Of a DNA stretch of 64,000 nucleotides, positions 7,870 through 34,507 are shown one piece after another (the stretch's first letter is position 1; every line of letters starts with the position of its first letter). The notes beneath the pieces are model-generated. The model saw only the letters and a program-made list of their open reading frames with translations. It searched no databases and had not been told where the DNA came from. Made by a program: the position numbers and the translations under genes. This DNA comes from Mytilus edulis (lineage: Eukaryota): NCBI RefSeq assembly GCF_963676685.1, contig NC_092351.1, positions 13,268,001-13,332,000 of the forward strand. Direction: 5' to 3'.

Positions 7870-8565
7870 TTGTCATGTCATGGTTTCTTTTATACACATT
7901 AAACATGCCACCAAGGACCTATACATACAATTTATGTTATTAACACATCATGGACCATAATAAAACAGAAGACCTATGTAGCTATTATCAACACATCATG
8001 GGCTCTTAAACTACAATGAAACAGAAGACCATGGATCAATTAGACACACCATAATCTCTTTTATACATATAACCCATGAGACCATGGACTTATAATTAAC
8101 ACATCTATTAACACATGACACCATAGACATAATTCATGTTATTAACACATCATGGACTCTTATACCACAATAAAGATAGACCCTGGACCAATTAGACTCA
8201 AAAACATGCCATGGTCTCATATTACGCATATTACACATGAGACCAAGGACCTATTCATGTACATGCTATATATCTGTCATAAGCATATCATTTAAACCAC
8301 AAATAAACATAAGATCCTGGACCACACAAAACTGTAAATGGCATGCCATGGTCTCATTAATGCATATTACACGTGAGACCTTGGACCTAAACATATCTCG
8401 GACTTTTAAACCACAAAGAAACATGAGACTAAGGACCAAATAGACAGTAAATAACATGCTATGGTCTCATTAATACATATTACACATGAGACCATGGACC
8501 TATAAATCTGTAAATAACACTTCATAGACTCTTATACCACAAAGAAACAAGACCATGGACCATTA
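7870..8565. repeat. Degenerate minisatellite built of catgagaccatggacc / catggtctcat motifs (copy at 50567-51262)
   Basis: Repeated motifs with an irregular ~115-140 bp period. Confidence 0.6.
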
Positions 8566-9659: not shown

Positions 9660-9945
9660 TTTTATGCCCCATTTATGGGCATTATGTTTTCTGGTCTGTG
9701 CATCCGTCTGTTCGTTTGTCCATTCGTCTATCTGTCCCACTTCAGGTTAAAGTTTTTGGTAGAGGTAGTTTTTAATGAAGCTGAAGTCCAATCAACTTGA
9801 AACTTAGTATGCATGTTCCATTTGATATGATCTTTCTAATTTTAATGCCAAGTAAGAGATTATCCCCCATTTTCACGCTCCGCTGAACATAGTAAATGAT
9901 AGTGCCCAGGGGCATCCGTGTACTGGGGACACATTCTTGTTTTTT
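9660..9945 (+). mobile_element. Helentron-associated non-autonomous element (HINE/DINE-1-like); partial relative at ~13652-13750
   Basis: T-rich insertion site, 5' tttatgcccc..gggcat stem, (ccgt/tctg)n microsatellite, 3' gggcatccgtgtactggggacacattcttgttt. Confidence 0.65.
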
Positions 9946-10704
9946 ATAAATGTAAAAAGTGTTTTTTTCTTATATAATTTTCCTTAGTATCGCTCTTGAT
10001 TACTTGAATTTAGTATGTTATACTTTTAGGTGGAGAATTTCAAAGATGAATATCCAGAATATGCTATTATTTGTATGGCTGTTGTTAATAATGCCATTGT
10101 GCATGTTGTATCAACTGGTATGTATCTGTAATCATACATTTGAGACATTTTTTCTCTGATTAACTTTTATCATGCCATGTCTTAAACAAATATTACCACA
10201 TGTATTATTACATTTAATGGACTTATTAACCATAGTAAAAGTAACCAACCCTGAAAAAATATTGATAGATTATTGAAGGGTCTCCAATTAAGAGTTTCTC
10301 TGCAAAAATCTCATGAAAGACAAACAAACATCCGCTTGTTAGAAAGATCTATTTTAGAGTTAAAATATGATAAATGAAATAGACATATATATGGTCAATT
10401 TTTAAATGTAATAATTTCAGTAGACCTGTGCTATTTATAAATTCAACTTTCTTTTTTTTAAATTTTACATTTTAATACATTTGTACTTTTAAAAGAGTTT
10501 CTTTGCTTTTCGAGTATTAACTTATTAAACTGAGATAGATTTAAACAGCAAATGTTGATATATTGAAAAGATATATATGTTTTTTGTATTATATTCAGGT
10601 TCAGTACAGATGAAGTTTATGTTGGTTCAAAATTAGCATGTAACAAAGACGTACAAAGATATACTTCTTGGCATGCAGTTTAATGGTAAACCTACAGAAT
10701 ATAT

Positions 10705-10882
10705 AAAAAAGAAGATGTGGTATGATTGCCAATTAGACAACTATCCACAAAAGACCAAAATGACACAGACATTAACAATTATAGGTCACTGTACGGCCTT
10801 CAACAATGAGCAAAGCCCATACCCGCATAGTCAGCTATAAAAGGCCCCGATATGACAATGTAAAACAATTCAAACGAGAAAA
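10705..10882 (+). mobile_element. Abundant short interspersed repeat (aagaagatgtggtatgattgccaatgagacaact family); other copies at ~1480-1710, 14780-14990, 19994-20140, 31755-32205, 32265-32490 and 44615-44902
   Basis: Multiple diverged copies on both strands within the window. Confidence 0.75.
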
Positions 10883-13800
10883 CCAACTAATATGTTTATA
10901 TTACATATCCTTCTTCATGCATATTTTTTTCCTTTTGTTCTGCTTCACATTTTTATTCTTCCACATAAGTTATGTTTCACTGTTCAACTACTGGACCCAT
11001 TTTAAGCAATTAGCTTGATTTTACTGCATAATGTACACATGGGTACATGTTGCAATATCTCAAATATAGAAAAATAGATGTATTAATATTTATGGTTAGT
11101 GAAATGAGTCTTTTTAGTTGAAGGGAAAACCAAGTGGCATATTGTAATTAGAGCTGTTAAACCATAGTTTTATGATACTGATACAGTGCTTGTTTTTCAG
11201 AGGCAGACAAAACTCCAGATCAGGCTGCAGACAATAATATTGTATCAATACCATACTCTTCTGTGCTGGAAACTAACGTCTATGATTTGCATGTTGGCAT
11301 CATGAGAACTCCGATATCCAAATCAGCTAAACCAATCACTTCTCTATCTAGTATGACACAATTTATTTTTATGTATTTTCTTTTTTTTAATATTAATAAT
11401 GTATGGTTTTCATTGTTATATCCTTGTAACTTGAAAACATTTTTAAATAGCACATTTTTAATGGTTTACCATTATAACTTACATGACTTACTGATAGGAT
11501 GTTATAACTTTCTATTTAACCTCGATAAAGGGGGATATGATGCAGCTTATTGGCTTGCCTGTTTTCATGACATTTTTTGCACTTGGTTGCAGTTTATATA
11601 CATTCTAGGATTGAAAGCCTTTGGCTTAGAAAACATCAGCATAATGACCCATATCTTTTCCCTTTGGTATTTAATCCTTTGTAATGTTTTGCCTATATTT
11701 CTGATATTTACATATTTCTTTTTAAGATACAGGCTCTTTGGGTTTAATTGTTCTTTTAGAATTGGTCTATTCCATGGGCATAATCTTTTGATAGACAGTG
11801 TTACAAATAATACTCATTATTTTACTTATCTTTTACACCATCAACTTTTGTAGTCACATCAATCAGTCGTAATGCAAATTGCTATTGAATATCTTTTAGT
11901 ATATAAATGGTACTGAAGAAGAATGTGTAGAAACTGTCAACCATGATCCAATAGAGCCTTAGAAAATATGAGAAGGGGACAAGGAAATGCAGGAGACGGA
12001 TGAAGAACAAGGGGGCATAATTTTTCAAGACAGGACAGGAGAAAGGGCAAGAACCAGAGGGGTAAACACATGTTCGATATGAAGATAATTCAATACAGGT
12101 TGTTTTTTTATGTCTGTCTAGGTTAAGGAACTTTTATTTTTTCATAAATAATTAAAGTTATTCATTGTATGTATTTCAAAGAGACCAAATGATATAGTAG
12201 TTAACAACAGTTCACTTTTCTATCTCCAACAATGAGCAAAACCCATTACACTTATCCAGCCATGACAGTCCCTGAAATTACAAATGATAAACATAAAATT
12301 CCTGTACAAAACAATATACAAATATAATATCAGAAGACAACCAATGAATTACACTGGATTTGTCCTTTTTTTCTGTTGTACTAATAGGAGAAATAGAGGT
12401 AATATCGAAATAAAAAAAGAACTTAATTACATAAATCGCTTAAATTTTTAAATTATTTGGTTTGTGTACAGCTTATTTGAAAACAATAATAAAAAATATA
12501 GGTCACCGATGAGTTAAAAAAGAAATTTCAGTTTTATTGCCAAAAAATGCATTTTTGCATCAAAGGGAGATTATTTGGAGCTTTTTCAATGAAATAGATA
12601 TTTTAAAAGTCATCTGGGGCCAAACCTAATCAATTTTTTTTTATTAAATTTTGTACCATATCATAAAGTTATAACTAATAGTGTAATAAATAAAATTTGT
12701 AATGAGAAAGACAAATGTTTATTTTTTCTCTTAACCAAATACAGTCGTAACATTTCTTAGCGAAACGTGATCGGTTTTATAGAATATTTCAGATGAGATC
12801 ATAGTTTAATAATTCAAACCCAATTTCATAGAAATTTCGTGATGACGACCCTTTGATTATCTTTAAAGTTAACCTGGTCATACTTTAATTTAGTTTCTTT
12901 TTTGGGGGGTTTACAGTTAGATGGACGGATAGATCATGATCTTGAAGGGAATTTGGTAATACCCTAAGATGATGTTGTGAAGCTGTTACCTCATCATATA
13001 GCCGAATGTTTATTCTGAAGGTATATATTGTATCACAATAAAGGAGTATTTCTAAACAGATTGGTTTCCTAATGTCATCTTAAATGTAAGTAGTGGGTAC
13101 CAAACGACAATTTAAAATTTTGATCTGAATTGTTGTTACGCTATATGACACACAACGTGTTAAAACATACTGATTTGCTCACATACAATTTTGAATATGG
13201 TTGACCAAAGTTCATCAAATGACAATAATAAGACATTATAATGAATATCCTTTTCACGTATAAATTTTTGTACCCGCGAGCCTCCTTAAGTGTTAAATTT
13301 TTATCCTTTTAGAATAAGTTTATTTAATAATTGATAACTTTACTCAGAGCAAACTTATTGTTTAAAGCTTGGTTAACAACATGATACAGAAAATCTAATG
13401 AACTGTCAAATTATTTTTAAAGAAGTCTTTAACTGTTACAGCAACAGGAGATATCTGTACAGAAAAAAGAAGCTGTAAATTGGCCATTTAAAACATAAAT
13501 GTTGGGTACATGCAAAAAAAATACCATTAACACAAAACAAATGATTGATTGATTGAAAATTTGTTGCTAAACATCCAGTGGTGAATATTTCATGCATGTT
13601 CAGGATGACATAATAAATTACAAATATATTAAAGGAAATATGTCTGAAATGTTTTTATGTCCCACCTACGATAGTAGAGGGGCATTATGTTTTCTGGTCT
13701 GTGCGTCCTTCCATCCGTCTGTTCGTTTGTTCGTCTGTCCATCCATCCCTTCATCTAGTAGGTATATAATTTGAGTTGATAACATGCATGTAACTGCAGA

Positions 13801-15056
13801 TTTTAAAATAATTTTTCATAGCCTACATTAAATCATGCATTAAGATAGAACTACATCCTTGTTTATTTTGCTTTGTTTATAGTTAATATTCTTTGGAAAT
13901 CGGGTATTATTAGAGATGTCTTTTTTTTTTTTTAGGTATAAAGACTGTATACCACTTTCCATAGGGGAATGAACAGCTTACCAGTTCACAGCAAATGAAA
14001 GTTGCATTTATAATGCAGTGTCCATTATCCTCTATAGAAATGAAGATACGGCTGTGGTACTGAAGCTGGCTGAAGTGTTGAAAATGGTGGATAATATGGT
14101 ACCATTTCCAAAATATGTAAGAATACAATATATGTTTTTTGTATTTTCCTTTATTTTATACCCTTCTATTACAGATAGAAAATAGAATTGTTTGTTGCTC
14201 CTTCATAAATCTTATGACTGGAAACATTTGTTTGCTGAACAGTTCTCTTAAATTGTTAAATCATATAAAGCAAGTATAAAATTCAACATTAAGACCTGTT
14301 TATTTAAAAATATTTATAATTGCAATTTACAATCCATTCATATGATCACAATCTGGTGCTTCAATCAATTTCACTATAATGTAGTATGATAAAAGAGTAG
14401 CACATAAGTATACAAATGTAAACCAAAAGGATATGCATAAAAAAATTATGTAAATCACAGATTACCATTAAGGGGTTATCTATGCTTGGCAATATTAATT
14501 TTTTTTTTTTTGCCTGTAGAAAGGTATATTTATTCTTATGGTATTATTGTAATATTTCTCTAAGATTGTAGAAGAATTCAAAGAGAAAACTGACCTGTGG
14601 GTTAAATCTACCCTGCAGCAGGTGATTGCAGCCTCGACAGCAGAGGAAGTAGAGTATGGATGCAGAAAAGAGCTGGTCTCGACTATTCAATATCCATACA
14701 CTACAGGGACCCGAATAGTATAAAGTTTCTCAAAATAATTTTTATGATTTAAAAGTTTAAAAAATATATTAATATGAAAATGAGGAAATGTGGTATGATT
14801 TCCAATGAGATTACTCTCCACAAAAGACAAAATTACACATTTATTTAACAACTACAGGTCCCAGCCTAATCTTCAACATTAAGTACAGTCCATATTGCAT
14901 AATGGGCTATAAAAGCTCCAAAATGACAAATCTAAAACCATTCAAACAAGAAAACTTACAGCCTGATTTATGTACAAAATAATGAATGAAAAATGCACAT
15001 ATTTCCTTAAAACAAATAGTTATAGTTCTGTTCTGTATATGATTACTGGTCAACTT

Positions 15057-16105
15057 CTTTTGTCAAGCCTTCGACTTCAGTCGAAAAAGCGAGACTAAGC
15101 GATCCTACAATCCGTCGTCGTCGGCGGCGTCCACAAATATTCACTCTGTGGTTAAAGTTTTTGAAATTTTAATAACTTTCTTAAACTATACTGAATTTCT
15201 ACCAAACTTGGACAGAAGCTTGTTTATGATCATAAGAAAGTATCCAGAAGTAAATTTTGTAAAAATAAAATTCTATTTTTTCCGTATTTACTTTTAAATG
15301 GACTTAGTTTTTCTGAGAGGAAACATTACATTCACTCTGTGGTTAAAGTTTTTAAATTTTAATAACTTTCATAAACTATCCTTGATTTGTACCAAACTTG
15401 GACAGAAGCTTGTTTATGATCATAAGATAGTATCAAGAAGAAAATTTTGTGAAAATAAATTTCCACTTTTCCGTATTTTACTTATAAATGGACTTAGTTT
15501 TTCTGCGAGGAAACATTACATTCACTCTGTGGTTAAAGTTTTTAAAATTTTAATAACTTTCATAAACTATCCTTGATTTGTACCAAACTTGGACAGAAGC
15601 TTGTTTATGATCATAAGATAGAATCAAGAAGAAAATTTTGTAAAAATAAATTTCCACTTTTCCGTATTTTACTTATAAATGGACTTAGATTTTTTGCCAG
15701 AAACAAAACATTCACTCTGTGGTTTAAGTTTTTAAAATTTTTATAATGTTCTTAAACTATCCTGGATTTCTACCAAACTTTGACAAAATATTGTTTCTGA
15801 TCATAAGATATTATTCAGAAGTAAATTTTGTAAAAAAAAATTTCACTTTTTCTGTATTTTACTTATAAATGGACTTAGTTTTTCTTCCAGTTAACATTAC
15901 ATACAGTCTGCAGTTAAAGTTTATAAAACATTTATTAGATTCATAAACTATCCTGGATTTTTTATCAAACTTGGAAGCTTCTTTCAATCAAAAGACAGTA
16001 TCGAGAGGGAAATTTTTATTGATGTTTTTCCTCATTTTTGTTGAGTCTGCGATTAACAGCAAAAGTAGGCGGGACACTGGGTTCTGTGGAACCCTTACGA
16101 ATTTT
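15057..16105 (+). mobile_element. Helentron-associated non-autonomous element with an internal ~190-bp tandem array (~4.5 units); copy at 57754-58802
   Basis: Units start at 15141, 15332, 15522 and 15712; (gtc/ggc)n microsatellite near the 5' end; 3' hairpin gggttctgtggaaccc; T-rich flanks. Confidence 0.8.
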
Positions 16106-17688
16106 ATTGATGATCAATGCATGAAATAGTAGACCAAGTATTCTGTTTTTAATTTTGCTACCTATGTGTATTATCTATAGCTTTGTTATTTTTGTTTCAG
16201 CTGTTTCCCATTGTTTTCATGTCCAATACAACAGCACTGCAAAAAATACCAGCAGTACAGCAGCTGATCCTGCCACCATTGACATCCTCAGCTAGACCAT
16301 CATCTTTACACTTGGTTTTGATGCCTACCAAGCCAAGACATATGTAAGATATAAAAGGTGTAGGCCTCACTTTATCCTGCAATCAGCTAACTATTGTACA
16401 AATAACAGGTACAAACATAGTTTTTTGCTTTATTTGTATATTTTGGAAAAGTATCAAATCTATTTGTACTCGCTACGATGCAGATATCCACTCAAAATAT
16501 ATCATGCTAACAATTTCTATGTTTTTAATTTGTTTCTTTTTTTACAAGCATCGCTCACATTGTTAACACATACATTTATAGTGTGTGGAATGGCAATTCC
16601 ATTATAAAGGTTGATGTAAAGTCTGATTTTCGTATTCCTTAGGAGTGACTAAAAAATATTTCATATTCTGAGGAGTTCAGCAAATTATCTAAAGAATTTT
16701 TAAAAAAATTATCTGACTTGAATTCAACATAAATACATTTAAGTTTACATCACAAAGCATTTTGAAGTAAAATGTAATAAATTTATGGACACTGAAATGC
16801 ATTTTTGTTTTTATTTTTGAATTTAGTTATACTTTTATAATATATTTTTTTATTATTTTCTTCATACAGCTCTGCATCTATCAACTCTATCTACAATGAG
16901 GTTCCAGATGTCTGCTCATTGGGACCTTATGGAAGCAGTATTGAGGATTGTGTGCTTTTTTGCCCTTCAGTTATGCTGTTTTCTGGACAGCCATCACAAG
17001 GTTATAACCCCAGGCTGGGTGGAATGTACCATTTGTGGACAGTTGGTTCATGATACATGCATGGGTGTCACTGCAGCAACCTTTAGCTTGCAGGATGATT
17101 TACCATGTGGATGTGATTGCCTGCAAAAAGGAGAGTTTTAACAGAAAAGATTGAAACTACCTAGCTCTCGTTAAAAAAACTCTCCCTTTATCCAGTCTAA
17201 TTTACCCAAATATAAAATTCTGTGTTTTCAATACTTAGTACTTCATTTCTATGGAAATTTTACCAAAATATTTCTATAAGTTTTTTCTATATTTTTGTTG
17301 ATTGTAAGTTTATTTTTATGTACACCATTTAGAGATAAGTCTTAGGCTATTGGAACAGTATTTTGTATTGTGTTAGCTACAATGATCTACAATGTATTTA
17401 ACATTGCATACTTATAATATTATTTTTTTTATTTCAGCATTGAATACTACACAAATTTACAGGTTAAAGACCTTGATATGGATTTCGATGTAAGTGAAAG
17501 AACAAACATATATTAAATAATGCTGACTCAGATCACTACAAATGAACACTAAAATGAGAAGAAACACAAGTTATACAAATATTATGTATTTTGTTTTTGT
17601 TGTAAATAGCCAAAACATGATTTCTTCTTTGAACAGTATGCCATACTTTTTGTTTTACAGTTCTTCTGGTGATGAAATATTATATTAA

Positions 17689-17961
17689 GGTGGTACCAAA
17701 GCCCTTGGCTAAAATTGATTTGGATTGTTTAATTTCTACAAATTTTGACAAAATGTTTACTTTGAGCCTTTGACCAAAATAAAAAAAAATTCAAAAAAAC
17801 ATGAACCACACAATTTATAGGAAAAAACTCAATAGATTTACAGCAGTTTGACACACATAAAATTTGATCATTCAAAAGCTTAATATTTAACATCAATAAA
17901 TAGTGATTTAAACATTCAGCTGATTTAACAGAGTTATCTCCCAGTTGTGTTATGTACCACA
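17689..17961. mobile_element. Kolobok-type MITE (copy at 60386-60658)
   Basis: TTAA|GGTGGTAC ... GTACCACA|TTAA. Confidence 0.7.
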
Positions 17962-18462
17962 TTAAAAGGGCATTGTCATGGTCCACAGAGTACTGATTTC
18001 ATATGAAATTTCAATATAAGAAAATTCTGTTGACCTGTAAACTTCTAGTATCATTCATGTAGATCAAGAGGAATACATGTTGAAATGTGAAATTGGTATA
18101 TAGATTGAATTATAGTGAAAAAGTTTTCAAACTGATTCAAATGATTTAACATTTTGTTCTTATTAATTTTAGGTTTATATACAAGTTCTATGTTAAAAAG
18201 AAGAAGTAAACAAGCCTATGGCTGAACTGGTTCTCATGAGACATAAACCAGCTGACCACTGTCAATCATCTCATGTTGACAACTTTATATCATTCCATGT
18301 TGATCACTGCATATCATTGTGACATCCATTTTCATTTTTTTCATCTTCAAAAAACGTTTATCTCTAGATGTTTGTAGCAAAACCTGTTGACTAAATCTAT
18401 ATTTAAAGTGGCAACCCATGTATTTAAATTTGTTTTATGATATATAATCTCTTATATCAACT

Positions 18463-19206
18463 TTTTAGCTCACCTGGCCTAAAGGGCCAATTGAGCTTTT
18501 CTCATCACTTGTAGTCTGTCGTCATTAACTTTAATAAAAATCTTCTCCTCTGAAACTACTGGGCAAAATTTAACCAAACAATCATCATTGGGGTATCTCG
18601 TTTCAAAAATGTGTCCGGTGACAGGGCAAACCAACCAGATGGCCGCCCCGCTAAAGATAGAACATAGGGCAAAATGTAGATTTTGGCTTGTATTTCTGAA
18701 ACCAAAGCATGTAGAGCAAATCTGAAAAGGGGTAAAATTGTTTATCAGATTAAGATCTATCTGCTAAGAAATTTTCAGATGAAGCGGACAACCCTTTGTT
18801 GGGTTGCTGCCCCTGAATTGGTAATTTTAAGGAAATTTTTCCGTTTTTGGTTATTATCTTGAATATTATTATAGATGGAGATAATCTGTAAACAGCAATA
18901 ATGTTCAGCAAAGTAAGATCTACAAAAAAGTCAAATGATCAAAATGGTCAACTGACCCCTTAAGGAGTTATTGCCAATTTTTAACAATTTTCATAAATTT
19001 TGTCAATTTTGTCAATTATTACAAAATGAGTTAACTCCTGGGACAAGTTCATTATAGATATAGTCAGCAGCAAAAATGTTCAGTAAAGTAAGATCTATAA
19101 ACACATCACCAAAACACAAATTTGTCATGAATTCATCTGTGTCCTACGTTTATTATATGCACATAGACCAAGGTGAGCGACACAGGCTCTCAAGAGCCTC
19201 TAGTTT
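18463..19206 (+). mobile_element. Helentron-associated non-autonomous element (tttttagctcacctg family); degraded minus-strand copy at ~27186-27615
   Basis: 5' gctcacc subterminal IR with stem; 3' ggtgagc followed by hairpin aggctctcaagagcct, then ctagttt. Confidence 0.8.
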
Positions 19207-19272
19207 ATTTGCAAATATTAATCCTAAAAATGATTTTCATATTTATCTCACAAAACATTTTGGGAACTCAGT

Positions 19273-19640
19273 AATTGATAACATATCTTTGATATATTTT
19301 TTCATTATATTATTATTGAAAATATAATTGTTAAAACTCTTGGCTATAAAATTAAAATATTAATCCTTAATAGCTAAAAATGATGCTCTAATTTATCACA
19401 AAAAAACTTAATTGATAACATATCTTTGATATATTTTTTCATTATATTATTATTGAAAATATAATTGTTAAAACTCTTGGCTATAAAATTAAAATATTAA
19501 TCCTTAATAGCTAAAAATGATGCTCTAATTTATCACAAAAAAACTTTTTTGGAACTCAATAATTGATAACATATATATGACTTATGTTTTCATTATATTA
19601 TAATTGAAAATATAATTGTTAAACCACTTGACTATGAAAT
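19273..19640. repeat. AT-rich ~137-151 bp tandem repeat, ~2.5 copies
   Basis: aattgataacata at 19273, 19410 and 19561. Confidence 0.8.
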
Positions 19641-20147
19641 TATGTAATTATCTTAATTCAGCATGGAAAACGAGATGTCAAATTATTACTTAACATTGTA
19701 TCATTTATGTTGTTTTCTGCTATTTATTATTGTGTCATATATGTAATATATGTTTTGATTGCAATGGCATGTAAATTTATTTTTGCAAATAAACTTATTC
19801 ATTCATATTCAATTATATAGATTTTAGTATATGAAAACTTCCGTTACAAGACAAAGTCATGGTATATGTGCATTTAAATTGAAGCTTTAAACAAGGATGT
19901 TTGCTGTCATTGTAAGGTTGAACTTTGTCATAAGCTTAAAATGTTTTCTCTTTTTTATTCATATGAATTGTTTATACCCTTCTAATAAATTTAGGAAGAT
20001 GTGGTGTAAATGCCAATGAGACCATTTTCCATCTAAATAACAATTTATAAAAGTAAACCATTATAGGTCAAGGTATGGCCTTCAACATGGAGCCTTGGCT
20101 CAATGTGAACAACCAGCTATAAATGGCTAAAAAAATTACTGTATCTG

Positions 20148-22851
20148 TAACTCATTGGTGTTTAAACGGTGTATAGAGTTTATACCAATCAAATAACTCT
20201 GTCTCACTGATGTATGAACATTTTATCTTGCCCCTATAAACTACCGGTACATGGTGACTAGGTATATTTGATATAGGTTGTCCTAAAAGATATAGGATTA
20301 GTTACCTTATGGGGAAAGTAAGGAGTTGCTTCCCTTTCAAAACAAAAAAGATGCTATCACCCTTCATATGTACAAAACAGTGTTGGGGTAAAATCTGAAA
20401 GGATTCAACAGACGAAGAAATAGTTGAGAAAAGGTCTCATTGGTGTATGAATGTTATAACGGGTTTATACCCGAGTATCTGTGTCTCATTGGTATATCAA
20501 CCTTATATAGGCTTTATACCCACTGAATAACTGTCTCATTGGTATATATGGTTTATACCTATATAATAACTGTATTGATGGTATGTGTGTTTTAATGTCC
20601 AGCTATCCTCTCTGGATATTGCGGACTGATATACCTATTTACAGATTTGGGTCTGTGTCATTTGGCTTTCATTATACTCCAACTGCGTGGCTAGTACGGA
20701 TTATCAGGCCGTTTTGCCAAGATGTCTGCTTGCATTGCCTCTTGGGATTCTATTCTTACAGGCTATGTATGTGGTGGAGTGCACGGTAGGTCTGGGTTGT
20801 TGATGTCTTATTGGTGTATTAACGTTTTATATGGAAATATATCCATCAAATGACCATGTCTCATTGATGAATAACCGTTTTATAGGATATATATCCATCG
20901 AAAACTGTCTTATTGGTGTATGAAAGTTTTATAGGGTTTAAACGCATCGAATAAATGTGTATGATTGGTATATGGACGTTGCTTAGAGTATAAACACATC
21001 AAGTAAATGTGTCTCATTGGTGTATGTACGTTATGTAGGGTTTATACCCGTCGAATAACTGTGTCTCATTGGTGCATGTACGTCATATAGGGTTTTATAC
21101 CCATTGAATAAGTGTCTCATTGATGTATAAACGTTTTATAGGGTATATACCCATCGAATAAATAGGTCTCAGTGGTGTATGACCGTTATATAGGGTTTAT
21201 ACCCATCGAATAAATGTGTCTCATTGATATATGAACAGTATATAGGGTTTATACCTATAAAATAAATGTGTCTCATTGCTTTATTTAGGGTTTATACCCA
21301 TCGAATAACTGTGTCTACTTGGTGTAAGACCGTTATATAGGGTATATATACCTATAGAATAAATGTGTCTCATTGGTGTATGACCGTTATAGAGGGTTGA
21401 TACCCATCGAATAAGTGTCTCATTGGTGTTTAAACGTTTTATAGGGCATATACCCATCGAATAAATGTGTCTCAGTGGTGTATAACGTTTTCTAGGGTAT
21501 ATATCCATCGAATAACTGTGTCTCATTGGTGTATGAATGTTTTATAGGGTATAAACACATCGAAATACCCATCGAATAACTGTCTCTCATTGGCGTATGT
21601 ACGTTATATAGGGTTTTTTACCCATTGAATAAGTGTCTCATTGATGTATAAACGGTTTATAGGGTATATACCTATCGAATAAATGTGTCTCATTGGTGTA
21701 TGAACGATTTATAGGGTTGATACCCATCGAATAAATGTGTCTCATTGGTGTATGTACGTTATATAGGATATATATCCATCGAAACACTGTGTCTTTTTGG
21801 TGTATGAACTATATATAGGGTATATACCCATCGAATAACTGTCTCTCATTGGCGTATGTACGTTATATAGGGTTTTTTACCCATTGAATAAGTGTCTCAT
21901 TGATGTATAAACGTTTTATAGGGTATATATCCATCGAATAAATGTGTCTCATTTGTGTATAACGTTTTATAGGGTATATATCCATCGAATAACTGTGTCT
22001 CATTGGTGTATGAATGTTTTATAGGGTATAAACACATCAAAACGCTGTGTCCCATTGGTGTATGAACGATATATAGGGTTGATACCTATCGAATAAATGT
22101 GTCCCATTGGTGTATGAACGATATATAGGGTTGATACCCATCGAATAACTGCATGTGTGTCATTGGTGTATGACCGTTATATAGGGTTGATACCTATAGA
22201 ATAAATTTGTCTCATTGGTGTAAGAACGATTTATAGGGTTGATACCTATAGAATAAATTTGTCTCATTCATGTATGAAAGTTTTAAAGGGTTTATATCCA
22301 TCGAAACAGGTCTTATAGGGCATATACCCATCGAATAAATGTGTCTCAGTGGTGTATAACGTTTTCTAGGGTATATATCCATCGAATAACTGTCTCTCAT
22401 TGGTGTATGAATGTTTTATAGGGTATAAACACATCGAAACGCTGTGTCCCATTGGTGTATGAACGATATATAGGGTTGATACCTATCGAATAAATGTGTC
22501 TTTTGGGTGTATGAACGATATATAGAGTTTATACCCATTGAATAAATGTGTCTCATTGGTGTATGTACGTTATATAGGGTTAATACCCATCGAATAACTG
22601 TCTCTCATTGGCGTATGTACGTTATATAGGGTTTTTTACCCATTGAATAAGTGTCTCATTGATGTATAAACGTTTTATAGGGTATATATCCATCGAATAA
22701 CACTGTGTCCCATCGGTGTATGAACGATATAAGGGTTGATACCTATCGAATAAATGTGTCCCATTGGTGTATGACCGTTATATAGGGTTAATACCCATCG
22801 AATAACTGTGTCTCATTGGTGTTTGTACGTTATATAGGGTTTTATACCCAT
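20148..22851. repeat. Satellite array, ~50-53 bp monomer (gtctcattggtgtatgaacgttatatagggtttatacccatcgaataaatgt); partial second copy at 62845-64000
   Basis: About 40 homogeneous units over 20800-22851, a degenerate left edge, and a unique insert at ~20590-20800. Confidence 0.95.
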
Positions 22852-24384
22852 TTTTTCTGTTGAAGTTGGTTTTTCTATTGGATCTGTATCTGCATTTTTA
22901 AAGCTAATACCAATTTTAGTGCCATCACATGCTAAGAATTTTGGGTTGTATTTGCAGATAGAACAAGGCTTTCTGAAATCAGTCTTGAATTTACTACTCC
23001 ATGAAAACCACCAAGCAATGAATGTTTGAGGGGACATAAATTTAGCTGAATTAAGAAAATTTCTCCTGTATTTTTTGCTCATGATTTTGCAATATGCACT
23101 GAAAGTGACATGAGTGTTCAATGCATGATCTACAAAATCCCAGCCAATCTCATCTCCTGCAGCAGTTTCCTTTGAAAGAAAATGGAGGCTGTCTGAAGAT
23201 CCACCATATTGAACTTGGCACTCTGCATTTGCTGCCAAGCAATTCCTACCAAGTACCTGAAAAAGAAGGAAAAGCAAATTGCATTTTTCTTCTAAATAGT
23301 TTAAGCCAAAATATAGATTTAATCTGTTTCTGATTCATCAGGGAATTCAAGTATCTGTATATTATTTCTACATCAGTTGAATAGGAAATATACTGTTTAA
23401 AATAAAGTATCATAACTTTTGATTTAACTATGTTCATACTAATAATTGCATAAAAGAAATAGTGAATTTATACAGGTAAGGGTCATATAAAATATTTCTT
23501 GGAATCGATTGTTAGGAGCATTTTGTCGGATAAACTTGTTTTTTTAAAATGAAATTTTGTAGGTCTGAACACTACCTGCACTACACATTCATTTATATAA
23601 CACTTTAAAACAAAATAAACAATTTTTAATTACTTTGTAAAGGGCCCACACTGGAATTTAAAAATTGAGAAATGAATAACCTCACTGGATCTGCACTATT
23701 AATTGTTTGTCTCATCAATGATATGAATGATATTAAGAAAAACAATGAGATAGGCAAATTATAAAAATTAAATTGAAAATTGTAGTATCTACAAAAATTT
23801 AAAGTCTTTTTAATTTCTTTAAACTTGTTTATAATTAAAAATAAATGAAAGCACACATAGTTCTTAAATTTAAAATGGCTCAAGACTTAGAAAACATTCT
23901 CACTTCAAATCTAGCTGGTCCGTTAGTCAAATACACCACTGTCCTGTACTTCACCTCGGTCAATACCCCATTTGGATGGTCATCATCAGAGTAGCCGGCC
24001 TTTAATTAAAAGCATTTTATTAGACATGAAAACACTAAGCAGAAAAATAAAAAAATATAAAATGTTGAGATATTCATGCAATCTGACATTATAGATTTTT
24101 TTTTTTAAAACTGTCAAAGGTTCAATCTAATAACTGTTATTTACTAATTTTTACAATGCAACTCATTACCTTTTAAATAATTTGGCGAGATATTTCATTC
24201 TAAAATCTAAATGACATGTAAATATTTTGCCATAGAAGCTAAGTTAGTTAAGATACTCTTAAACAATAATGTATATCTAGTCTGTCTATATCATGTTTAT
24301 AACAATTACAAGTCAGGCATACTGCACTGGTTATTAGAATTTCGGATACACCAAACCAGGCACTTTATATTTGAGAAACAGGCT

Positions 24385-24555
24385 ATAAAATTAAGAATGG
24401 AAATGGGGAATGTGTCAAAGAGACAACAACCCGACCAAATAAAAAACAACAGCAGAGGGTCACCAACAGGTCTTCAATTTAGCGAGAAATTCCCGCACCC
24501 GGAGGCGTCCTTCAGCTGGCCCCTAAACAAATATATACTAGTCCAGTGATAATAT
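24385..24555 (+). mobile_element. Abundant repeat of the taaaattgagaatggaaatggggaatgtgtcaaagagac family; minus-strand copy at ~45850-46098
   Basis: Two near-identical copies in opposite orientation. Confidence 0.75.
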
Positions 24556-27500
24556 ACATGCCCTTAATTTTAGAACCATTCATATATTTTTGTATTATTC
24601 AAAATTATCAGTAAATTGTATGTTCTACAAGGATCACCAATCCTTCACCTTTCATCTGATACCTTAATTACATAAATTTATTCTACACAAGTTTTACCTT
24701 TCTCTGTAGAAACTATTTTGTTTTAAATATGTACTACTTTCCAGTATGTCCTTTTTTGACCAGGACTGATTAGGATGTGTTACAACTAATCATTTTTTCA
24801 AAGAATTCCTTTCAAGCCAGTGCTAGGGGCCATCTTCAACTTGCATTGAGGTGATCTTTTTTTGTTTTTTTTTGTTTGTTTGTGTTGAAGGCCTCACTGG
24901 TCCTTTCAGATAAAGAACAGCAATAATAGTACCGTTTTTTTTTATGTGTACTGGATTTTTTTGGTCATGGATGAAAACCCATCATTCTTTGTTTTCCAAT
25001 TTTGTTATATTTTGCACTAATATAATTTGTGACATTTAGCGCAGAATTTTGTAGTAGAAATTTAATAGAGAAAAAAATTACCCCACAAAGACATCCATCT
25101 TCTAATACAGGAGGAAAGAGTACAAGTGGATTGTTTCCGGTCAAATACCCTTTAGTGTCTCGAACAACTCCTTCTGCACCATCAAATACAGCTAATCTTT
25201 TTTTAATTGCTCGTTGTAAGGCTGGATCATCTTCCTCCTTGGGTCTGTGCTCACTCAAACTTGGGAAATCCCAAAGTCCTGTTGCCGGATTAAAAAAATT
25301 TGTCTGAAAACAAAATGTGAACATATTTAATAAATATAACATAACAGACAAAATAAAGTATGTAGCACTATATGAAAAAACTGACATCATGATGTGAATT
25401 ATTTCTTCCATATTTTTTTTAGATTAACCTTTTTAGTCAGGTAAAATCATACTTTATGGGCAATTGTATCAGTTATTGTATTTATGTTCATTTAAAAACG
25501 ATTTTTGGTCCATCAAGGAAATGTTTGTGTTGTAGGCATTTAGTTGGTAATTGCATGTTATTTCCAACGCTGGCAAATTCAATTTGATTAAAAGTTTGAG
25601 TGAACGGTGTTATTCTTGTCTATTAATTAGATATATCTGCTTTGGTTTAATGATTGTAGTTTGTAACTTACCCTCTTTGTTTGAGTAGTTTCTGGTTGAA
25701 AAGTATCCTCCAAATCATTCTCATCTTCCTCATTATCAATAAATGCTTCCTCATCTTCATCTTCAATGTCTTCTTCAATATCATTACCATTCATCCATAA
25801 ATTTTTGTGGTCTTTCATTGCCTGCAGATGAGGACAAACATTACTTGTTTCGCACAAGTATATGACTTTACGAGTAGAAAAACTGTAAATGGCACTACAT
25901 TCACCGGACTGGCATGATACACGGTTTCTGGAAACATTCACAAACTTACAATCTTGACTACTGTTTGGTACAACTGAAAATTTTTTTGTTCGAAGAGATG
26001 ACAGAAGTAAAATTACAGGCTTTTGTAAAGCAGCCAAAGATAACATTATACTTTTCTGAGATTTTGTTGGTGATGTAAAAACTTCTGTGCTGAAGTAGAT
26101 GGGATAATCAGGTTCAATAATTTCTTTGAAATACCTTATATGGCAGCATTTGATGTTAATAGAATCTATTTCTGTGTCAGGCTGTTCATCTAATGTTGCG
26201 AGCTGTAATAAAGTTGCAAAGAGTGTACATGTGCAATGGTATACGTTGACATTCCCAACATTTCTCCTTGTCATGTGAACAAAAGATGACTCCATTAAAC
26301 ATCCAGTGGTCATGTTGACGTCATTCAAACAGAGGACATCGATATCTGATTCGTGAACACGCCAAAATAAACCTCCAGTTTCAGTTTGTGCTGTTTTATA
26401 CTTTTCATACAAGGAATTGTCTGAAGCCCTGTTGTGTGTTGTAAAGAGAGGATTAACAGTTCGAAGGTTTCTTAAAATATCCTCTTCATTTAAAGCTTTG
26501 CGTTTAGGTCTTACTTGTCTCGGAGTAGAATTTTGCATATTTTCCCCAATGTTGATGTTGTCGTCATTGATGTTCTGGCGCGAATTTGATGGGGAAGACT
26601 CTGGGTTACGAAATTTGTCAACTAATCTAAAAATAGCAGAGTAGTTGGATTCTCTGTGATGGTAAAGTATCAGATTACGAAGAGAAGCAGGCTTATATTT
26701 CTCAGTAGAATCGCGGATAGATAACATTCTACCATAGCCAACATGAGCATGGGTTCCCTCATTCCAATAGTGGTCATTTGGTAGGCAGGAAATAATTTTG
26801 CACTGGTCATATAATGTGTATTTTGAGCTGGATGGTGGATCAAAAATAAATTTAAATTCTGGATTCTCAACAGGGACTCCTTTAGAACGGTAGTTATGTA
26901 TGGTATTTTCCCATATATGGAGAATAGGATGAAAGACTCCTGAGGCTTCGAGAAATCTACAAAAGAAATATTTAGTTTCAATCATATTACGGTAGATATG
27001 TTTTAGGTTAAAATTTCAGACAACTGAAAATATAATATTCTACAAATATAATATTTAATATATGAAATAATATAACTGTAAAGTATCTTTTTTTTAACAT
27101 GTTAAACTGGTCTCAAAGATTCTCCTTTAATAGCATATATATATCAAAAACAAATACATTAAATATTTTTTTCTTATCTGATAAACAACTAGAGGCTCAC
27201 CTTGGTCTATGTGAATACTAAACAAAGGACACAGATGGATTCAAGACAAAATTGTGGTTTGGTGATGGTGATGTGTTTGTAGATCTTACTTAACTGAACA
27301 TTCTTGCTGCTTACAATTATCCCTATCTATAATGAACTTGACCCAGTAGTTACAGTGGAAAATGTTAGTAAAATTTTACAAATTTTGTGAAACTGTTAAA
27401 AAAAAATGACTATATAAAGGGCAATAACTCCTTAGGGGTCAATTGACCATTTTGGTCATGTTGACTTCTTTTTAGGTCTTACTTTGCTGTACATTATTGC

Positions 27501-30500
27501 TGTTTACAGTTTATCTCTATCTATAATAATATTCAAGATAATACCAAAAACAGCAAAATTTCCTTAAAATTACCAATTCAGGGGCAGCAACCCTTCGGGC
27601 CAGGTGAGCTAAAAATGTATTTACATTTCTTTTTGATGTTCATTTTTCTTAAACTTGCATTATATTTTTCAGAACAATTAAACATATTAATAAACAATGT
27701 TAAAAGCTATTCCACAATAGGAGAGAAAACAGCTTAAATTACATAATTAGTAAAATAGAATGTTTGAGGACAAAAATACACCTTCTCATATTTTGCTATT
27801 GTCTGCATGCTGTGGTTCTTATCATTGTGTATGAGTATCACAAGAATTGGATGAGTAAAACTTAAGTTAGAGAGAGCAGAAATAAAAATTGGGATGGATG
27901 GATGGATGGACTGTAAAAGGTAACACACAATGCTTCTTTCACCCTAAAGCAGGGGCATAACAAAAGTATGGTAAGTATATCATGTATATAGATTCAAAGT
28001 GTCATTTTTTTTTTCATTTACACACTAAACTTTTAAACCAATAATATTTTTCTTCAATTACTCCTGCAATAAAATAAATAAATACATAGTTGAAAATTTC
28101 AAACTGAATAAAAAGATAAATTTATATCTAATTTTAACAAGTATTCCTTAGAGAAAAACTAAGAACATTAATTGATACAAGTTTCAATTCTGAAGATCTC
28201 AATTATACCTGGCTTTTTGAGTATTGTTTTCTTTGTGCGAGTTATGTTTGATAACATTTACCACTGTTCCTAGTAACTGGCAGGATTCTGTTGAGGTTTG
28301 CGCCTTTGCCATCAACTTTCTGTGTGAATTAAGAATACTGGATTTATTTCTTTCAAGAAGGTTGACGTATCGTCTTCCAGTATCTGAACCAGGATTACCT
28401 ACAATAATAAACAATAATCTCATTCTTTGAAACTAACATTATAAAATTATGGTGTAACTGCTGTTGAGGACAGAATAGTGTTTTTGAATGAGAATATTAT
28501 CTAGAAAAAATACACTAGAGAAATATCTCTTATCAGATGATTGATTGCTGTTGTTGACTCGCCCTAATTAGCTTTAACATGTAGGTCCAGGTTAAACATA
28601 CCTTGCTGGGTTCAAACTTACAACCTCAATGTTGACAGGATAATTATCACATTAAATCACTAAACTGCTGAAGCTCCCATTTTACAAAATTCAAATTGGA
28701 GCATGCATATGCAGACTATTCTTAATAACTTAAATCACAATCCTCTTTAAAAATAGAAAAAATAAATTATTGGAAGCAGCTTATAAATCATATCATTTGT
28801 ATTATAAAAAGCTCGAAGTTTTTTATGTGCTGTTCATATATAATTATGTATGTCTGTTTATGTTTTACTTGCTTATGGCTTTATTTTTTTATTTATCATA
28901 AATTGTCTTCTATGTTTCATCTTTCTTCATAGTTTGGTACCATCTATGAAGCTTATCAATTTTGAGGCTGAACATGGAATTATGACCAATGCAGTTGTCT
29001 TTATTCAGTGTATATTTTAAAATAGTAAACTTGCTTAAAGAATGATGACTTCTTTTTCTTTCTAACTTAAGGGTGTATCTTCTGTGGTACTGCTTTATAT
29101 CATCTTGAGTGGAAACTTGCAACCAAACCAGTTTTGTCATATCCAAACGATGTTCCTCAAAATAATTTTTAAGCTGAGACATTCCTAGTGACAAAAAATA
29201 AGAAACTTATTTCTGTAAATGTTACAACAATGAATAAATATATTTTTTCACAAATTGAAATAATGCTAAATGTTACTGATTCGACAAATTTATCTTAACA
29301 CTATGCAGAATTTGTAAAAAAAAGAAAAAGATATTCATCAGTTTTATTCACTATTAACTTTTTTTTCTAGATTTCCTTATTCACAATCATGGTATGTTAA
29401 CAGGACCTGTTATAAAACTGCATGATGTGTTAACATTTTTAGAGGCATTGAATTGTATAATGTTGATAGTGAAAACTGCTCTAGAACTGATATAAATGAG
29501 TTTCCTTCAAAAATATAAATACCTGAAAAACATGATAATCATGAGTTGTATGGCTAAGAACCATGATTAATCATATGATAAATAGTTTATACTTTAAGGA
29601 ATGTTTAATTCCTTATTTTTTTTAGATTAATTGCACACCTTACTCAAATAATGTTATAACAAAGACATATTACAAATATGAAAACAATGTAAAAAAGTAA
29701 AAAAAACTCAATGGGAAAAAACTAAGGACAATTGTCATGATTGTGTAGATCACTGTGTATGAATTTACATGGTACATGTAGATATGAACAATAATGAAAC
29801 ATACCCTCAGATAAGAAATATCCCTGAAGAACTCCACTTTCAAAAAATCTACAGTAGTAAACATCATCAAGCTTGAAGAAGGAGCAGTAAAACTCTCCAT
29901 CAGTAAGGGAGGGTGATGACAGATCTAACATGGTTTTCTCTAACTGAAATAAAAACGGTGTTTCTGGTGAAGTGAAGTCAGCAGCGGCCAAAGATTCAGA
30001 ACATTTTCCTTCTAGATACACAGCTCTTGAGGCAATTTCTAGATTCTTCTTTAAGCTGACTTTCCATTCTACAATGAATTTTGATTTATACAGTTTACTT
30101 ATTCATTTTAACAATATATTTTTTACCTAGAAGCAACATGAATTTCATTTAAAAAATGTAAAGATTTTTGCAATAATAAAACCATTTAAAATAAATGAAA
30201 GATGATATGTTTGTTAACCTTATATCATGTAGAACATTGACATGTCAGTTAGATAAGTTTTTGTGCTGATTTTACTCAGAAAATGTATTGTTTATCTTTT
30301 TTGTTTCAAGTTTAATAAATATATAGTAATGCTATCAATATAAAAAAAAACCAATTAAAAATACTGCACATACATGACATATATTTCTACAATTTATGTT
30401 ATTCATGAATTACCTCTGTCTTCCAACTGTTGCAAAACTGAAGATGATGGACATGCTAATTCTGGTCTAGTTGAGTGTACTCCAAAAGTTTCCTATCAAA

Positions 30501-31981
30501 TAAACAAAAAATAAATTAAAAATGAAAATTTTCTTACTACATGTTACTGTGTATAATTTCAGCTTACGCCCCAAAAGGTAATAAGCATTTGTTATATGCC
30601 ACATAATAACTTATCATAGCCAAGCTGCTGACATTTTTCACTATCTACTAAATAAAGAACTAGAATGAAGCCTTAGTAAGGTGTGACTCATAATATTTTT
30701 AGAAAGGCACTTGGGTTTAATTGATTACTGCATAGATGCAAACCCCTTTTTGACACAATCAGTAACAAACTATCAAATTTTCCGTATTTTTGAAAAGTTT
30801 TCAGTAATCATTCATAAACGTGCATTTACCAATAAAAATTACTGATGAGTGGTTGCACAGTGATGTACACTAAAATTTGTCATTTAACATGTTGTCTGTA
30901 GTATGTATTCCATTCATTGATTGTTCAGATGTTCTCGACTCAAACATTTTTGTTTTGTCAAGGAGAAGTAGAGAAAGGGGGAAAGCTACTTAATAAAATG
31001 CAAGTTTGCCTCTTCGGAAGTCAGTTAGTTACCCAACAATAGGTTGATAACTCCCGAGAAACCGGAAGCATTACATTGGCGTTTCCTAAATACTGGACCA
31101 GGACGGAAAAGTAATGATAAAAATCCGCGTTTTACAAAATTGAACGTCGATGATTGGGAATCCGTAACTATACTACTTTGACCGTAATAGCGTAGTTTTT
31201 ATCGCAAAATCGGAAAAACTACGGAAAAATCGTAATGGTTGGCATCTATGTTAATGATTATACATGGACACATGCAAGTAACTGATCTTTAGATAAAATT
31301 AAAATTAATCAAACAGAAGCACAAGTTTTTTTAGATGAAATACAGAAAATGTTCCTCTGCACACGCACCTGTACATCATTTTATTGTTCAACTGATAGGA
31401 ATTCAAGAAAGAACCCATTAGATCTTGATGAAACTTTAAGAAAACTGCAGTATATATATATAAAAAATAATATTGATAAAATATTTTATAAAATTTCAAT
31501 GTCAATGAATGTTATGATTTCTTCAGAAAATTTCAGTAAAAATATGTAGACTTTAAAAAAAAAATGACAATATGTCGATAGTAGTATTTAGTACATATGT
31601 GATGCCCAACATAGATGTGTAAGCATTGTGTATTAGTTTAATAAAATATAAGACAATAACTTCGAGAGAATAACTGCACTTCAGAATAAAAGCCAAAAAT
31701 AGAGACAAAATGTATGTTACAATGTATGTATGTAACTATGTATGTGCCAGTACCAAGGCAGGAGCCTGTAATTCAGTGATTGTCGTTTGTTAATGGGTTA
31801 CATATTTTCTTTTCATTCAACATTTTTTTAAACATAAATTAGACTGTTTGTTTTCTCGTCTAAATTGTTTTACATTTGTCATTTCTGATCCTTTTATAGC
31901 TGAATATACGGTATGGGCTTGCTCATTGTTAAAAGCCATACAAGGACCTATAGTTGTTAATTTCTATGTCTCTTGTGGAAG

Positions 31982-32154
31982 TAGTCCTATAACATATGAC
32001 TTCGCATTCTTATTCAATTTTTAACGTTTTTATACTGATATTTTCATTTTTATTTTTTTTTGAGCTCGGGTGGCATATTGATAGTAAAAAAAAATATCAG
32101 AACAGTAAATAGAAATAGTAAATAATGCCCCCGAGGTCATATGTTATAGGACTA
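31982..32154. mobile_element. Academ-type MITE: TAG...CTA termini, 9-bp TSD
   Basis: TSD ttgtggaag at 31973-31981 and 32155-32163; TIR tagtcctataacatatgac. Confidence 0.85.
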
Positions 32155-34507
32155 TTGTGGAAGGTGTCTCATTTATGGCCATCATAACACACCTTCTTTT
32201 TTATATACACCATAGGGAGAAGTGGAGGGTCGTGTCATGTTTTTTTAAACTCTATTTTCCAAATCAGGAACCTGATGTTAGTTGGTTGGTTGTCGTCTGT
32301 TGATGTGGTTTAGTAGTGATTCTGGTTTTTTATAATTAGGTTTCCAAGTTTGAATGTCTTTATAGCTTGCTGTTCAGTGTTAGCCAGGTCTCTGTGTCGA
32401 AACCTTTACCTTTAATCTGTAATTGTTTACTTTTACAAATTGTGACTTTGATGGAAAGTTGTCTCATTGGCACTCATACCATATCTTCTTACACCTATCT
32501 ATATCTATTTATTTCTTTTAAAAGCATTTGTGTGTGACAAATGCTAAGGAGGTATTTCCCTGCCTTGCCAAGTAAACATTTTCCTCATTTTTTTTTTACA
32601 TCCAATAACAAAGGGAAATAATCCAAATCATCAAAATTACGGGTTAACTCGGCCCAGGACCAACTCGAACCACGACAAGACAAAACAGCACACTCAAAAT
32701 CATGTCACAAAAAATAAAATGAAAATATAAAATAATATGGAAATACCGACTTACCTACCCTAAATTTTTTTTAAAGCATGTAACCTTAACAGACATAATA
32801 TATATATTTTTTGGCCTAATAATAAAAAAATGTTTTTTTATAAATTATTTACAAACTAAAAAAAAACAAACTTTTTGTCACCTGTCATGCTTGCATAAAA
32901 CATATATGATATTAAAGTTGGGTCTAAAAAAACACACATTGGCGGCAATAGCCTTGTTTATACATGTAAATAAATACAACCATTAAACCATTCTAATGTA
33001 TCGAGAATTGGTACTTACAGAACATTAGTTATTTCTAGACTATTCTGCAGAATATTATTCCTGAAGATGTTTGAACCAATAGTTTGTGAAGTTAGCGGTC
33101 AGTGTAACAAGTTGCCAAGTTGTATTTTGCCAATGTATGAAAGAATTTTTTAATCTGGACTAGCTAGAAGGATAAATTCTGGATTTCTTTGAAAATTGAA
33201 AAATCATATTCAGTTTAATATGTTTAAACATTTTCCACAATTGTTTACTGCATGTTGTAGCAGATTATTCATCTTGTACTGTGAAAGCTCATTAATTTTT
33301 AGCTCTTACCGAATCTAGGTTATTCTCTTTTTTCAGTAATCCCCCCCCCCCCCCAAATCCTAATTTGTAATAAATTTCCATTGTTTGTTGTTTTTTTAAT
33401 GTAGTGTTCCCAAGTTCTTGTCAAGTACACAACTCAAGACTAAGATTAAAGTTATCAGGTCATGCCAGTGTATGCTTTCGTTTATGCCCAGAACGACTTT
33501 TTTGTAACTTTAGTTTGTCAGATATGAATGCACGTGCGGAGCGTGGGACCTTATTAAACCTGGGTATATATGAAACCTCCAAAGGTTAATAATTAGTAAT
33601 TACTTTTGTAATAGGTTTGACTAGCTATTGACGAGTATTGTACGCACATCTTCGGTTGGGCCTCGATGTTTTTTTTAAAGGGGGAGGGTCGATGTTATGG
33701 AGTTGAAAACCCGCAAGACACACTGTTAAAGCACTTTTTGCTGCATTTAGTTGGCAAGCTAACTTACTTTCACTAAATTACTCATAATCCTGCTAAAAAT
33801 ATTCTAATAATTAAATAAAATCAACTATAGAATTGTTGTGACCCCTTTGTGAAGCAACAATGGCCGACAAAGATGCTCTGCAGCAGTAGCTATATCACAT
33901 GATTCAAGCAACCAATGGGACGTACAGCACCAGACTTTTTTGTAATATATGATATGATTGGTTCCTACGTTTTGGTAGGTAAATACTATGTAAATATATA
34001 TATCAATTGCAGTCAAAATACATGGGTTAATGTGTTGCAATGTAAACAATGGAGAGCGTGGAGAAAAACATAAAAAGGTGAAATGATACATAGTTTGTAA
34101 AGTACTGAAGAAGGTCAATGTATTTAATATCTCTAATAAACAGCTGCGCCATGTAAAAAGTTTCTGAGATACGGCGCGACATGTGATTTTTTTTTTTACA
34201 AAAAACTCAATAACTCTAAAATAAAATTTTGAATCATCACCAAAAAGTACACAGATCTTTAGATTAATATAACTAAGAAGTGTGTAAAGTTTTAAGCAAT
34301 AGATATTAATGGTTTTTAAGATACGATGCAACATGTGAACCCCCTTTTTTTTTTTACAAAAAACTCAATAACTCCATTATAAAATTTTGAATCATCACCA
34401 AAAAGTATTCAGATCTTTTGATTAATATAACTAAGAAGTGTGTACATTTTTAAGCAATAATCATAAATCGTTTATGAGATATGGCGCGAAATGTGAAAAC
34501 CCATCCC

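Follow-up and report, generated by a model that had tools for sequence, protein, structure and literature searches.

A putative 34.5-kb KDZ transposon with 3- or 4-bp target-site duplications and a decayed OTU-PHD passenger gene in Mytilus edulis

A 64,000-bp stretch of Mytilus edulis DNA (NC_092351.1, positions 13,268,001 to 13,332,000; here called the window) contains two genes that face each other within what we describe as a giant DNA transposon of the KDZ type. The minus-strand gene encodes the transposase, and the plus-strand gene, referred to below as the cargo, is a broken relative of proteins that join an OTU protease domain to a PHD finger. An initial annotation of the window had recognized that the two genes are convergent and contain introns, and this stood, but the coordinates it gave for them have been replaced by those in Table 1.

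The window holds an exact repeat, 15.8 kb of identical sequence at 5506-21303 and 48203-64000, which the initial annotation had overlooked, and this located the ends of the element. When the genome (G000) was searched with the last transposase exon, 10 matches were obtained, and alignment of the regions gave four long copies, all starting at the equivalent of window position 5506 and stopping at that of 33990. Searches with the element ends found 7 left and 6 right ends, yielding six two-ended copies on 4 contigs with both ends in common and unrelated flanks; these counts of copies and ends in G000 are lower bounds. The two-ended copies measure 28.5 kb (copy 1), 34.5 kb (copy 2), 29.7 kb (C12), 32.9 kb (C8B), 19.4 kb (C14) and 7.2 kb (C4), and element copies differ from one another by 0.09-0.96%. 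Copy 1 has been cut by a deletion of ~6 kb at 22851, running into a 52-bp satellite. Comparison of the left end of the element with its right end showed that bases 16-36 match at 20 of 21 positions and that the outer bases 1-15 diverge. The ends are laid out alike in the sister families C7, of 32.5 kb, and C3/C11, whose elements measure 39.4 and 38.7 kb (G000:C3:25088718-25128122 and C11:51984710-52023396), and in all three families the inverted repeat begins 12-16 bases inward, beyond divergent outer bases. The terminal bases are CA..TC in the window family and CA..TG in the C3/C11 family. Aligning multiple copies, which the initial annotation had suggested as a way to define the ends, yielded the termini, the subterminal inverted repeats and the 3- to 4-bp target-site duplications described below.

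The splicing of the transposase gene rests on P0023, a 1,302-amino-acid spliced product from a 5.8-kb Logan contig recovered in the homologue search, which mapped onto nine exons separated by seven GT-AG introns and one GC-AG intron. Complete 1,302-codon frames are present in copy 2 and C12, with 1,296 and 1,299 residues identical to P0023. In copy 1, 903 stop-free codons (899 identical to P0023) run up to the deletion, and in C8B the last exon carries an insertion and a stop. The two genes had initially been described as similarly decayed; in fact, only the plus-strand gene is. Five RNA runs from three studies contained 0.70-0.85 of the words of exon 6. Changes relative to the C7 transposase are distributed 140/90/267 over the three codon positions (of 532), a pattern that points to purifying selection. 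P0023 clusters at 90% with proteins from five Mytilus species. More distant relatives were found in bivalves, Hydra, Clytia, Hydractinia and Lineus and, remotely, in fungi, where the closest proteins (P0098-P0102) are CxC4-KDZ proteins (E 1e-23 to 9e-10); none were found in the viral contigs searched. One metagenomic relative, L191, has a convergent SET-domain gene downstream (11909-12730, minus strand; Pfam SET, 41.6 bits).

Five of the six two-ended copies of the window family are flanked by target-site duplications: TAA (copy 1), GTAG (copy 2), TTA, TCA and CTAG (C14). No duplication was present at the flanks of the 7.2-kb C4 copy. Those of the sister families are TTA (C7), ATAA (C3) and CTT (C11), giving duplications of 3 or 4 bp, and none of 8 bp, in eight of nine two-ended copies across three families. 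The chance of such a duplication is ~0.03 per copy, and that of eight in nine ~5e-12. We then compared the copy 1 site with contigs from four runs of other individuals. A flank-to-flank contig from run X1 carried exactly one TAA, and in runs X4 and X8 the left flank was joined straight to the right flank; X1 also held the filled copy 1 junction. The absence of copy 1 from alleles of other individuals indicates that the insertion is polymorphic and its mobility recent. C14 sits in a repeat family, in which 7 of 11 paralogues have a single CTAG; the remaining 4 differ by substitutions, and CTAG is doubled in none. An empty site for copy 2 was sought and not found, its flank running into a common small repeat. 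Runs X4 and X7 contained left flanks outside the 7 known from G000.

Copies 1 and 2 differ by 0.09%, lie 14 kb apart and have different target duplications, a combination that fits local hopping. The alternative of a 42.7-kb unit duplicated in tandem was considered and rejected, as the spacer is not repeated beyond copy 2. More generally, the identity of the two copies over 15.8 kb, together with a transposase gene that has eight introns and is under purifying selection, might suggest a segmental duplication or an assembly artefact of two neighbouring host genes, one of them a domesticated transposase. We give this almost no credence: the two copies differ in their flanks and duplications, copies lie on four contigs, and the empty sites in other individuals refute it.

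Pfam KDZ (PF18758) matched the intact last exon of copy 2 at 27.7 bits, and reached 29.2 bits in the genome search, against a cut-off of 26.6. On 22 raw frames of the window, Pfam returned no KDZ, SWIM or OTU match, that for KDZ being missing because copy 1 has lost the KDZ core. The two SWIM-like fingers and the CxxC..P..ACDG motif (window ~22,900-22,960) that the initial annotation had read in this gene were confirmed, the fingers in an alignment of 25 proteins chosen from 102 homologue matches. Finger 1 is C475-x-C477..C504-x-H506 and finger 2 is C587..C608-x-H610, each named residue being kept in 23-25 of the 25 homologues; Pfam SWIM had no match on P0023, though the CxC..CxH pattern is conserved. 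Three cysteines of the CxC4 region (C733, C735 and C774) are kept in all 25, and the homologues P0005, P0044 and P0055 score above the CxC4 cut-off (30.0, 52.2 and 34.2). CxC1 had no match on P0023 and is not listed for any of the 102 homologues. Residues D879, D1195 and E1250, kept in 25/25 aligned rows, are the inferred catalytic triad. An AlphaFold model of the last exon (pLDDT 91.8) had as its best structural matches the ISCth4 transposase (Z 9.2, rmsd 4.6, 221 aligned) and then foamy-virus integrase (Z 8.2, rmsd 3.5, 138 aligned), and an RNase H-type fold is accordingly predicted for the core. Zisupton transposases have a SUMO-protease domain; Pfam found none on P0023. Academ elements make short target duplications, and an Academ identity was considered for that reason and dropped, the protein being KDZ.

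To place the element among described KDZ systems, we drew on portions of the reports cited. Target duplications are 8 bp in Zisupton and Dileera and 7 bp in Kyakuja, which has CA..TG ends and no inverted repeats (PMC12730594); they are 8 bp in KDZ1 and KDZx1 (CxC4, SWIM) and 4-8 bp in KDZ2/3 (PMC11343200; 10.1101/2025.05.19.654958). Judged from its sequence, the element is a KDZ DNA transposon that falls outside Zisupton, Kyakuja and Dileera by these reported lengths. The first description of it as Zisupton-like was right for KDZ broadly and not for the 8-bp duplication. With Zisupton it shares the KDZ core, a SWIM finger and recent activity in an animal, and it too has inverted repeats, here set inward of divergent outer bases, but the 8-bp duplication and CxC7 domain of the platyfish element were not found in it (PMC12730594, PMC12062965). 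Kyakuja and Dileera are similar in their KDZ core, large size, chromatin-related cargo and passive passage of cargo between elements (PMC12730594; PMC11343200; 10.1101/2025.05.19.654958), and Kyakuja ends resemble those of the C3/C11 family. Unlike Kyakuja, however, the mussel element combines 3- to 4-bp duplications with CA..TC ends and inverted repeats, and Dileera differs in its duplications, its CxC1 domain and inverted repeats of 139-241 bp in Cryptococcus (PMC11343200; 10.1101/2025.05.19.654958). KDZx1 of Cryptococcus deneoformans likewise encodes a KDZ, CxC4 and SWIM transposase and has a second open reading frame, but it is 6.4 kb long with no inverted repeats detected (PMC11343200), compared with 34.5 kb and short subterminal inverted repeats in the mussel. 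Ectocarpus and Chlamydomonas also harbour giant KDZ elements, of up to 30.3 kb and of 31.7 kb respectively, which share the size class, extra genes, fixed nested insertions and mobilization in trans (PMC12477816); the mussel elements differ in their bivalve host and in reaching 34.5 and ~39 kb. Fungal KDZ elements carry TET/JBP genes (PMC12730594). In the portions of the literature covered (also PMC5751038, PMC8226300, PMC4455052 and PMC9297572; Repbase, Dfam, subscription journals and bioRxiv supplements lay outside the scope), there was no bivalve KDZ element with 3- to 4-bp duplications or OTU-PHD cargo. Giant KDZ elements with cargo have been described before; what is new here is the short and variable duplication, the way the ends are laid out, the host being an animal, and a cargo that is dead and has been swapped.

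The cargo exons were placed by tblastn with P0120, P0111, P0109, P0218 and P0219 and by profile matches; the first and the last two are weak collinear matches, and exons two and three were identified by eye. They align to P0120 at E 2e-7 to 4e-9 and are collinear with intact bivalve proteins, as are the two exons (13937-14118 and that reaching ~17150) in which an OTU-type cysteine motif and a PHD finger had correctly been spotted. The intact homologues P0120 (Pecten), P0218 (Ruditapes), P0111 (Pinctada) and P0219 (Logan) consist, in order, of an N-terminal domain, a low-complexity linker, an OTU domain with (D/N)GNC and HVVP motifs and a PHD finger. Pfam OTU (PF02338) matched P0120 at 28.2 bits (cut-off 23.3). 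The window OTU exon alone had no Pfam match, and PHD scores were below cut-off (PHD_4, E 0.0013, for the window exon; PHD, E 7e-4, for P0111). With a HMMER profile built from six OTU-like exons, 87 proteins were recovered; a word-based search with a single OTU exon found no match. The Atlas model of P0218 lay nearest to the OTU and vertnin clusters, and its AlphaFold model was of low confidence (pLDDT 42, from 9 sequences). As in vertnin and OTU proteases, the cargo has Cys-loop and His motifs, but here OTU is joined to a PHD finger and possibly to an NRF1-like N-terminus, and is broken in the element. The NRF1 likeness of the homologues' N-terminus is a lead from an Atlas score of 0.84; it had no PDB sequence match and no Pfam match, and no exon with the NRF1-like core motif was found in the window by tblastn or profile.

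The cargo contains stops at 10634 (in a frame read by eye), 11960, 13970 and 17139 as well as several frameshifts, and has lost the catalytic His. The TGA at 13970 recurs in all eight copies tested (the four long copies, C3, C11, C1a and C9). Identity between copies is 0.87-0.89 in exons and 0.86-0.88 in introns (four comparisons; Fisher p 0.38-0.70), and codon-position changes are 6/9/4. On these sequence comparisons, the convergent gene, though genuinely homologous to OTU-PHD proteins, is now a dead pseudogene, its exons drifting like introns, and it died before the copies diverged by ~13%. That it was once a working gene appears likely, because scallop, clam and pearl oyster still have intact homologues.

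The initial annotation had proposed that the two genes make up one large element with a transposase and convergent OTU-PHD cargo, and this held up: the cargo is convergent in six of seven two-ended transposase-bearing elements, which represent two of the three families. It had gone on to suggest a possible anti-silencing module. In a working module of this kind, histone marks on the element would be recognized by the PHD finger, and repressive ubiquitin would be taken off by the OTU protease. The intact homologues do keep the OTU Cys, the His and the PHD finger, the linkage is recurrent, and both the SET-domain gene of L191 and the TET/JBP genes of fungal elements offer parallels. For the copies at hand the proposal is nevertheless refuted, since every element-borne cargo examined is broken and neutrally drifting; the family stayed mobile despite its dead cargo; C7, with the closest transposase (70% identical) and the same kind of ends, has no cargo; and none was found in 80 metagenomic relatives (only 13 of these loci being 8 kb or longer). 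We consider a functional module very improbable.

Overall, the C3/C11 transposase is only 31-34% identical to that of the window family, and 42% in the last exon; its exons are arranged differently, and it forms a separate, well-supported branch of the tree. The predicted transposase of this family, P0227, is 2,046 amino acids long, is extended at its N-terminus by SGNH/GDSL-like and C2H2 parts, and has an open frame of 1,431 codons. Yet the C3/C11 cargo introns are identical to those of the window family at ~86% of aligned bases, and the satellites are related too. The OTU stop common to this ~39-kb family with its distant transposase suggests that dead cargo moved between lineages; the cargo half was likely exchanged by recombination after the death of the gene. 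Ten other cargo-like loci were found in G000, of which eight had no match to this transposase lineage within 30-60 kb; C5 arose by deletion and retains both genes, and C11b had a divergent fragment. Those eight, and the fixed nested insertions of giant KDZ elements (PMC12477816), would also suit a cargo that is part of some unrelated repeat or gene family, was inserted by chance and never served the transposon. This account departs from the one we favour solely on the cargo's past, and we think it improbable. No separate cargo ends or duplication were seen, although no search was aimed at them, and in Mytilus californianus the models for the transposase (P0191) and for a cargo whose Arg and GNC are intact (P0109) lie close together in locus number and have an equal-length scaffold, which is a hint only. 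Many decayed OTU-PHD homologues and KDZ fragments cluster at G000:C11 ~6-41 Mb. A second OTU-transposon pairing occurs in the genome at L063:1315-2529, where an intact intronless OTU frame (Pfam, 24 bits) is followed by what we take to be a MULE-like transposase motif.

Very probably, then, the locus holds a 34.5-kb KDZ transposon whose ends are defined and whose duplications are 3 or 4 bp long; it likely transposes by cut-and-paste with its own intact DDE transposase and carries the OTU-PHD gene as a broken passenger. The ends, duplications, empty sites, intact frames of the sister copies, spliced product and cargo decay were observed directly; the steps of binding, excision and strand transfer are drawn from knowledge of DDE transposases. 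The SWIM and CxC4 zinc fingers would bind the ~21- to 30-bp subterminal inverted repeats, the D879/D1195/E1250 core would cut at the poorly matched outer 15 bp, and the element would be joined to its target with a stagger of 3 or 4 bases. Internally deleted copies may move in trans. Copies 1 and 2 would be a recent local pair; copy 1 would either have transposed while still undeleted or have been mobilized in trans. The cargo likely once worked and has since died, and its dead segment then likely recombined between two distant KDZ lineages.

Several observations weigh against this interpretation. Full-length P0023 falls below the KDZ cut-off (24.7 bits, E 2.2e-5), Pfam gives no CxC4 on it, so that CxC4 rests on homologues and aligned cysteines, and Foldseek gave no match to the transposase model at E <= 0.001. 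The tree is a quick version of CxC4-group proteins only, without reference Zisupton, Kyakuja or Dileera. Empty sites cover two of the eight duplications (TAA and CTAG); the empty alleles of X4 and X8 hold one AT beyond expectation in a flanking microsatellite, and the filled junction of X1 is a 68-base contig with 30 bases within the element. For TTA copies that have a G next to them, 3 and 4 bp are ambiguous. Mobility is read from insertions and empty sites. Finally, the cargo searches of G000 score best candidates only, and an intact copy may exist elsewhere.

Table 1. Positions of the element, its genes and its repeats in the window.
Feature	Position	Strand	Remarks
Putative KDZ transposon, copy 1	5506..33990		28,485 bp; without ~6 kb present in copy 2; shared ends, unrelated flanks
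Putative KDZ transposon, copy 2, first 15.8 kb	48203..64000		full length 34,522 bp, ends at G000:C8:13350724
Left target-site duplication TAA, copy 1	5503..5505	+	single TAA at empty site in another individual
Right target-site duplication TAA, copy 1	33991..33993	+	
Left target-site duplication GTAG, copy 2	48199..48202	+	same GTAG after right end
Left subterminal inverted repeat	5521..5552	+	begins at base 16 of end
Right subterminal inverted repeat	33944..33975	-	
Degenerate internal tandem repeat	7851..8601		related to repeats within C11 and C7 elements
52-bp satellite array	20804..22851		~71% alike to C3/C11-family array; copy 1 deletion ends inside
KDZ transposase gene, copy 1	22851..33785	-	ATG at 33785; 9 exons; last 400 codons deleted
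Transposase exons 1-5	33785-33768, 30492-30414, 30068-29805, 29184-29035, 28398-28209	-	
Transposase exons 6-9	26956-25672, 25303-25082, 23999-23904, 23256-22851	-	
Cargo pseudogene	10031..18244	+	N-terminal region, vertnin-like OTU, PHD finger, tail; probably extends to ~18244
Cargo exons, first five	~10031-10118, 10599-10685, 11201-11350, 11900-12098, 13937-14118	+	
Cargo exons, last five	~14566-14706, 16202-16340, 16871-17153, 17439-17490, 18174-18244	+	
OTU Cys-loop exon	13937..14118	+	in-frame TGA at 13970; ANESC vs (D/N)GNC in intact homologues
OTU His-site and PHD exon	16871..17153	+	NEVP vs NHVVP in homologues; frameshift; TAA at 17139

A host gene on the minus strand occupies window positions 1-4219, with its ATG at 4219 (Pfam ADH_N_2, E 0.04); we take it to be class III alcohol dehydrogenase-like, and the polymorphic copy 1 lies 1.3 kb upstream of it. 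Between the two copies is a spliced DEAD-box helicase remnant (38767-42940, plus strand; Pfam DEAD, E 1e-7), presumably RecQ-like, which probably belongs to another transposon. Common small repeats with 500-bp and 190-bp units lie at 34507-36808, 15139-16016 and 18461-19206, some of them nested and fixed within the element. Broken Polinton-like remnants flank the window on both sides (G000:C8 ~13,259,000-13,262,000 and ~13,360,000-13,377,000), their frames presumably encoding integrase, polymerase, ATPase and capsid-like proteins.

A more speculative view, which we hold to be unlikely, is that these elements make up a KDZ lineage of their own, spread across animals (relatives occur in bivalves, hydrozoans and a ribbon worm), whose stagger varies between 3 and 4 bases and which reaches the largest sizes among the KDZ elements cited. 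Its ancestors would have carried an anti-silencing protein with NRF1-like DNA-binding, OTU deubiquitinase and PHD reader functions, intact and element-borne in scallops and clams, as an animal counterpart of the fungal TET/JBP cargo.

To our knowledge, KDZ elements have been little studied in animals beyond fish Zisupton. The element described here is a fully delimited, recently mobile bivalve example, and its intact spliced transposase makes KDZ chemistry directly testable. A 3/4-bp duplication would break the 7- to 8-bp rule used in classifying KDZ groups. Polymorphic insertions of 30-40 kb offer one concrete origin for the presence/absence variation of mussel genomes. The cargo shows that giant transposons can carry a gene, and exchange it, long after it has died, and the presence of cargo alone is therefore no proof of function.

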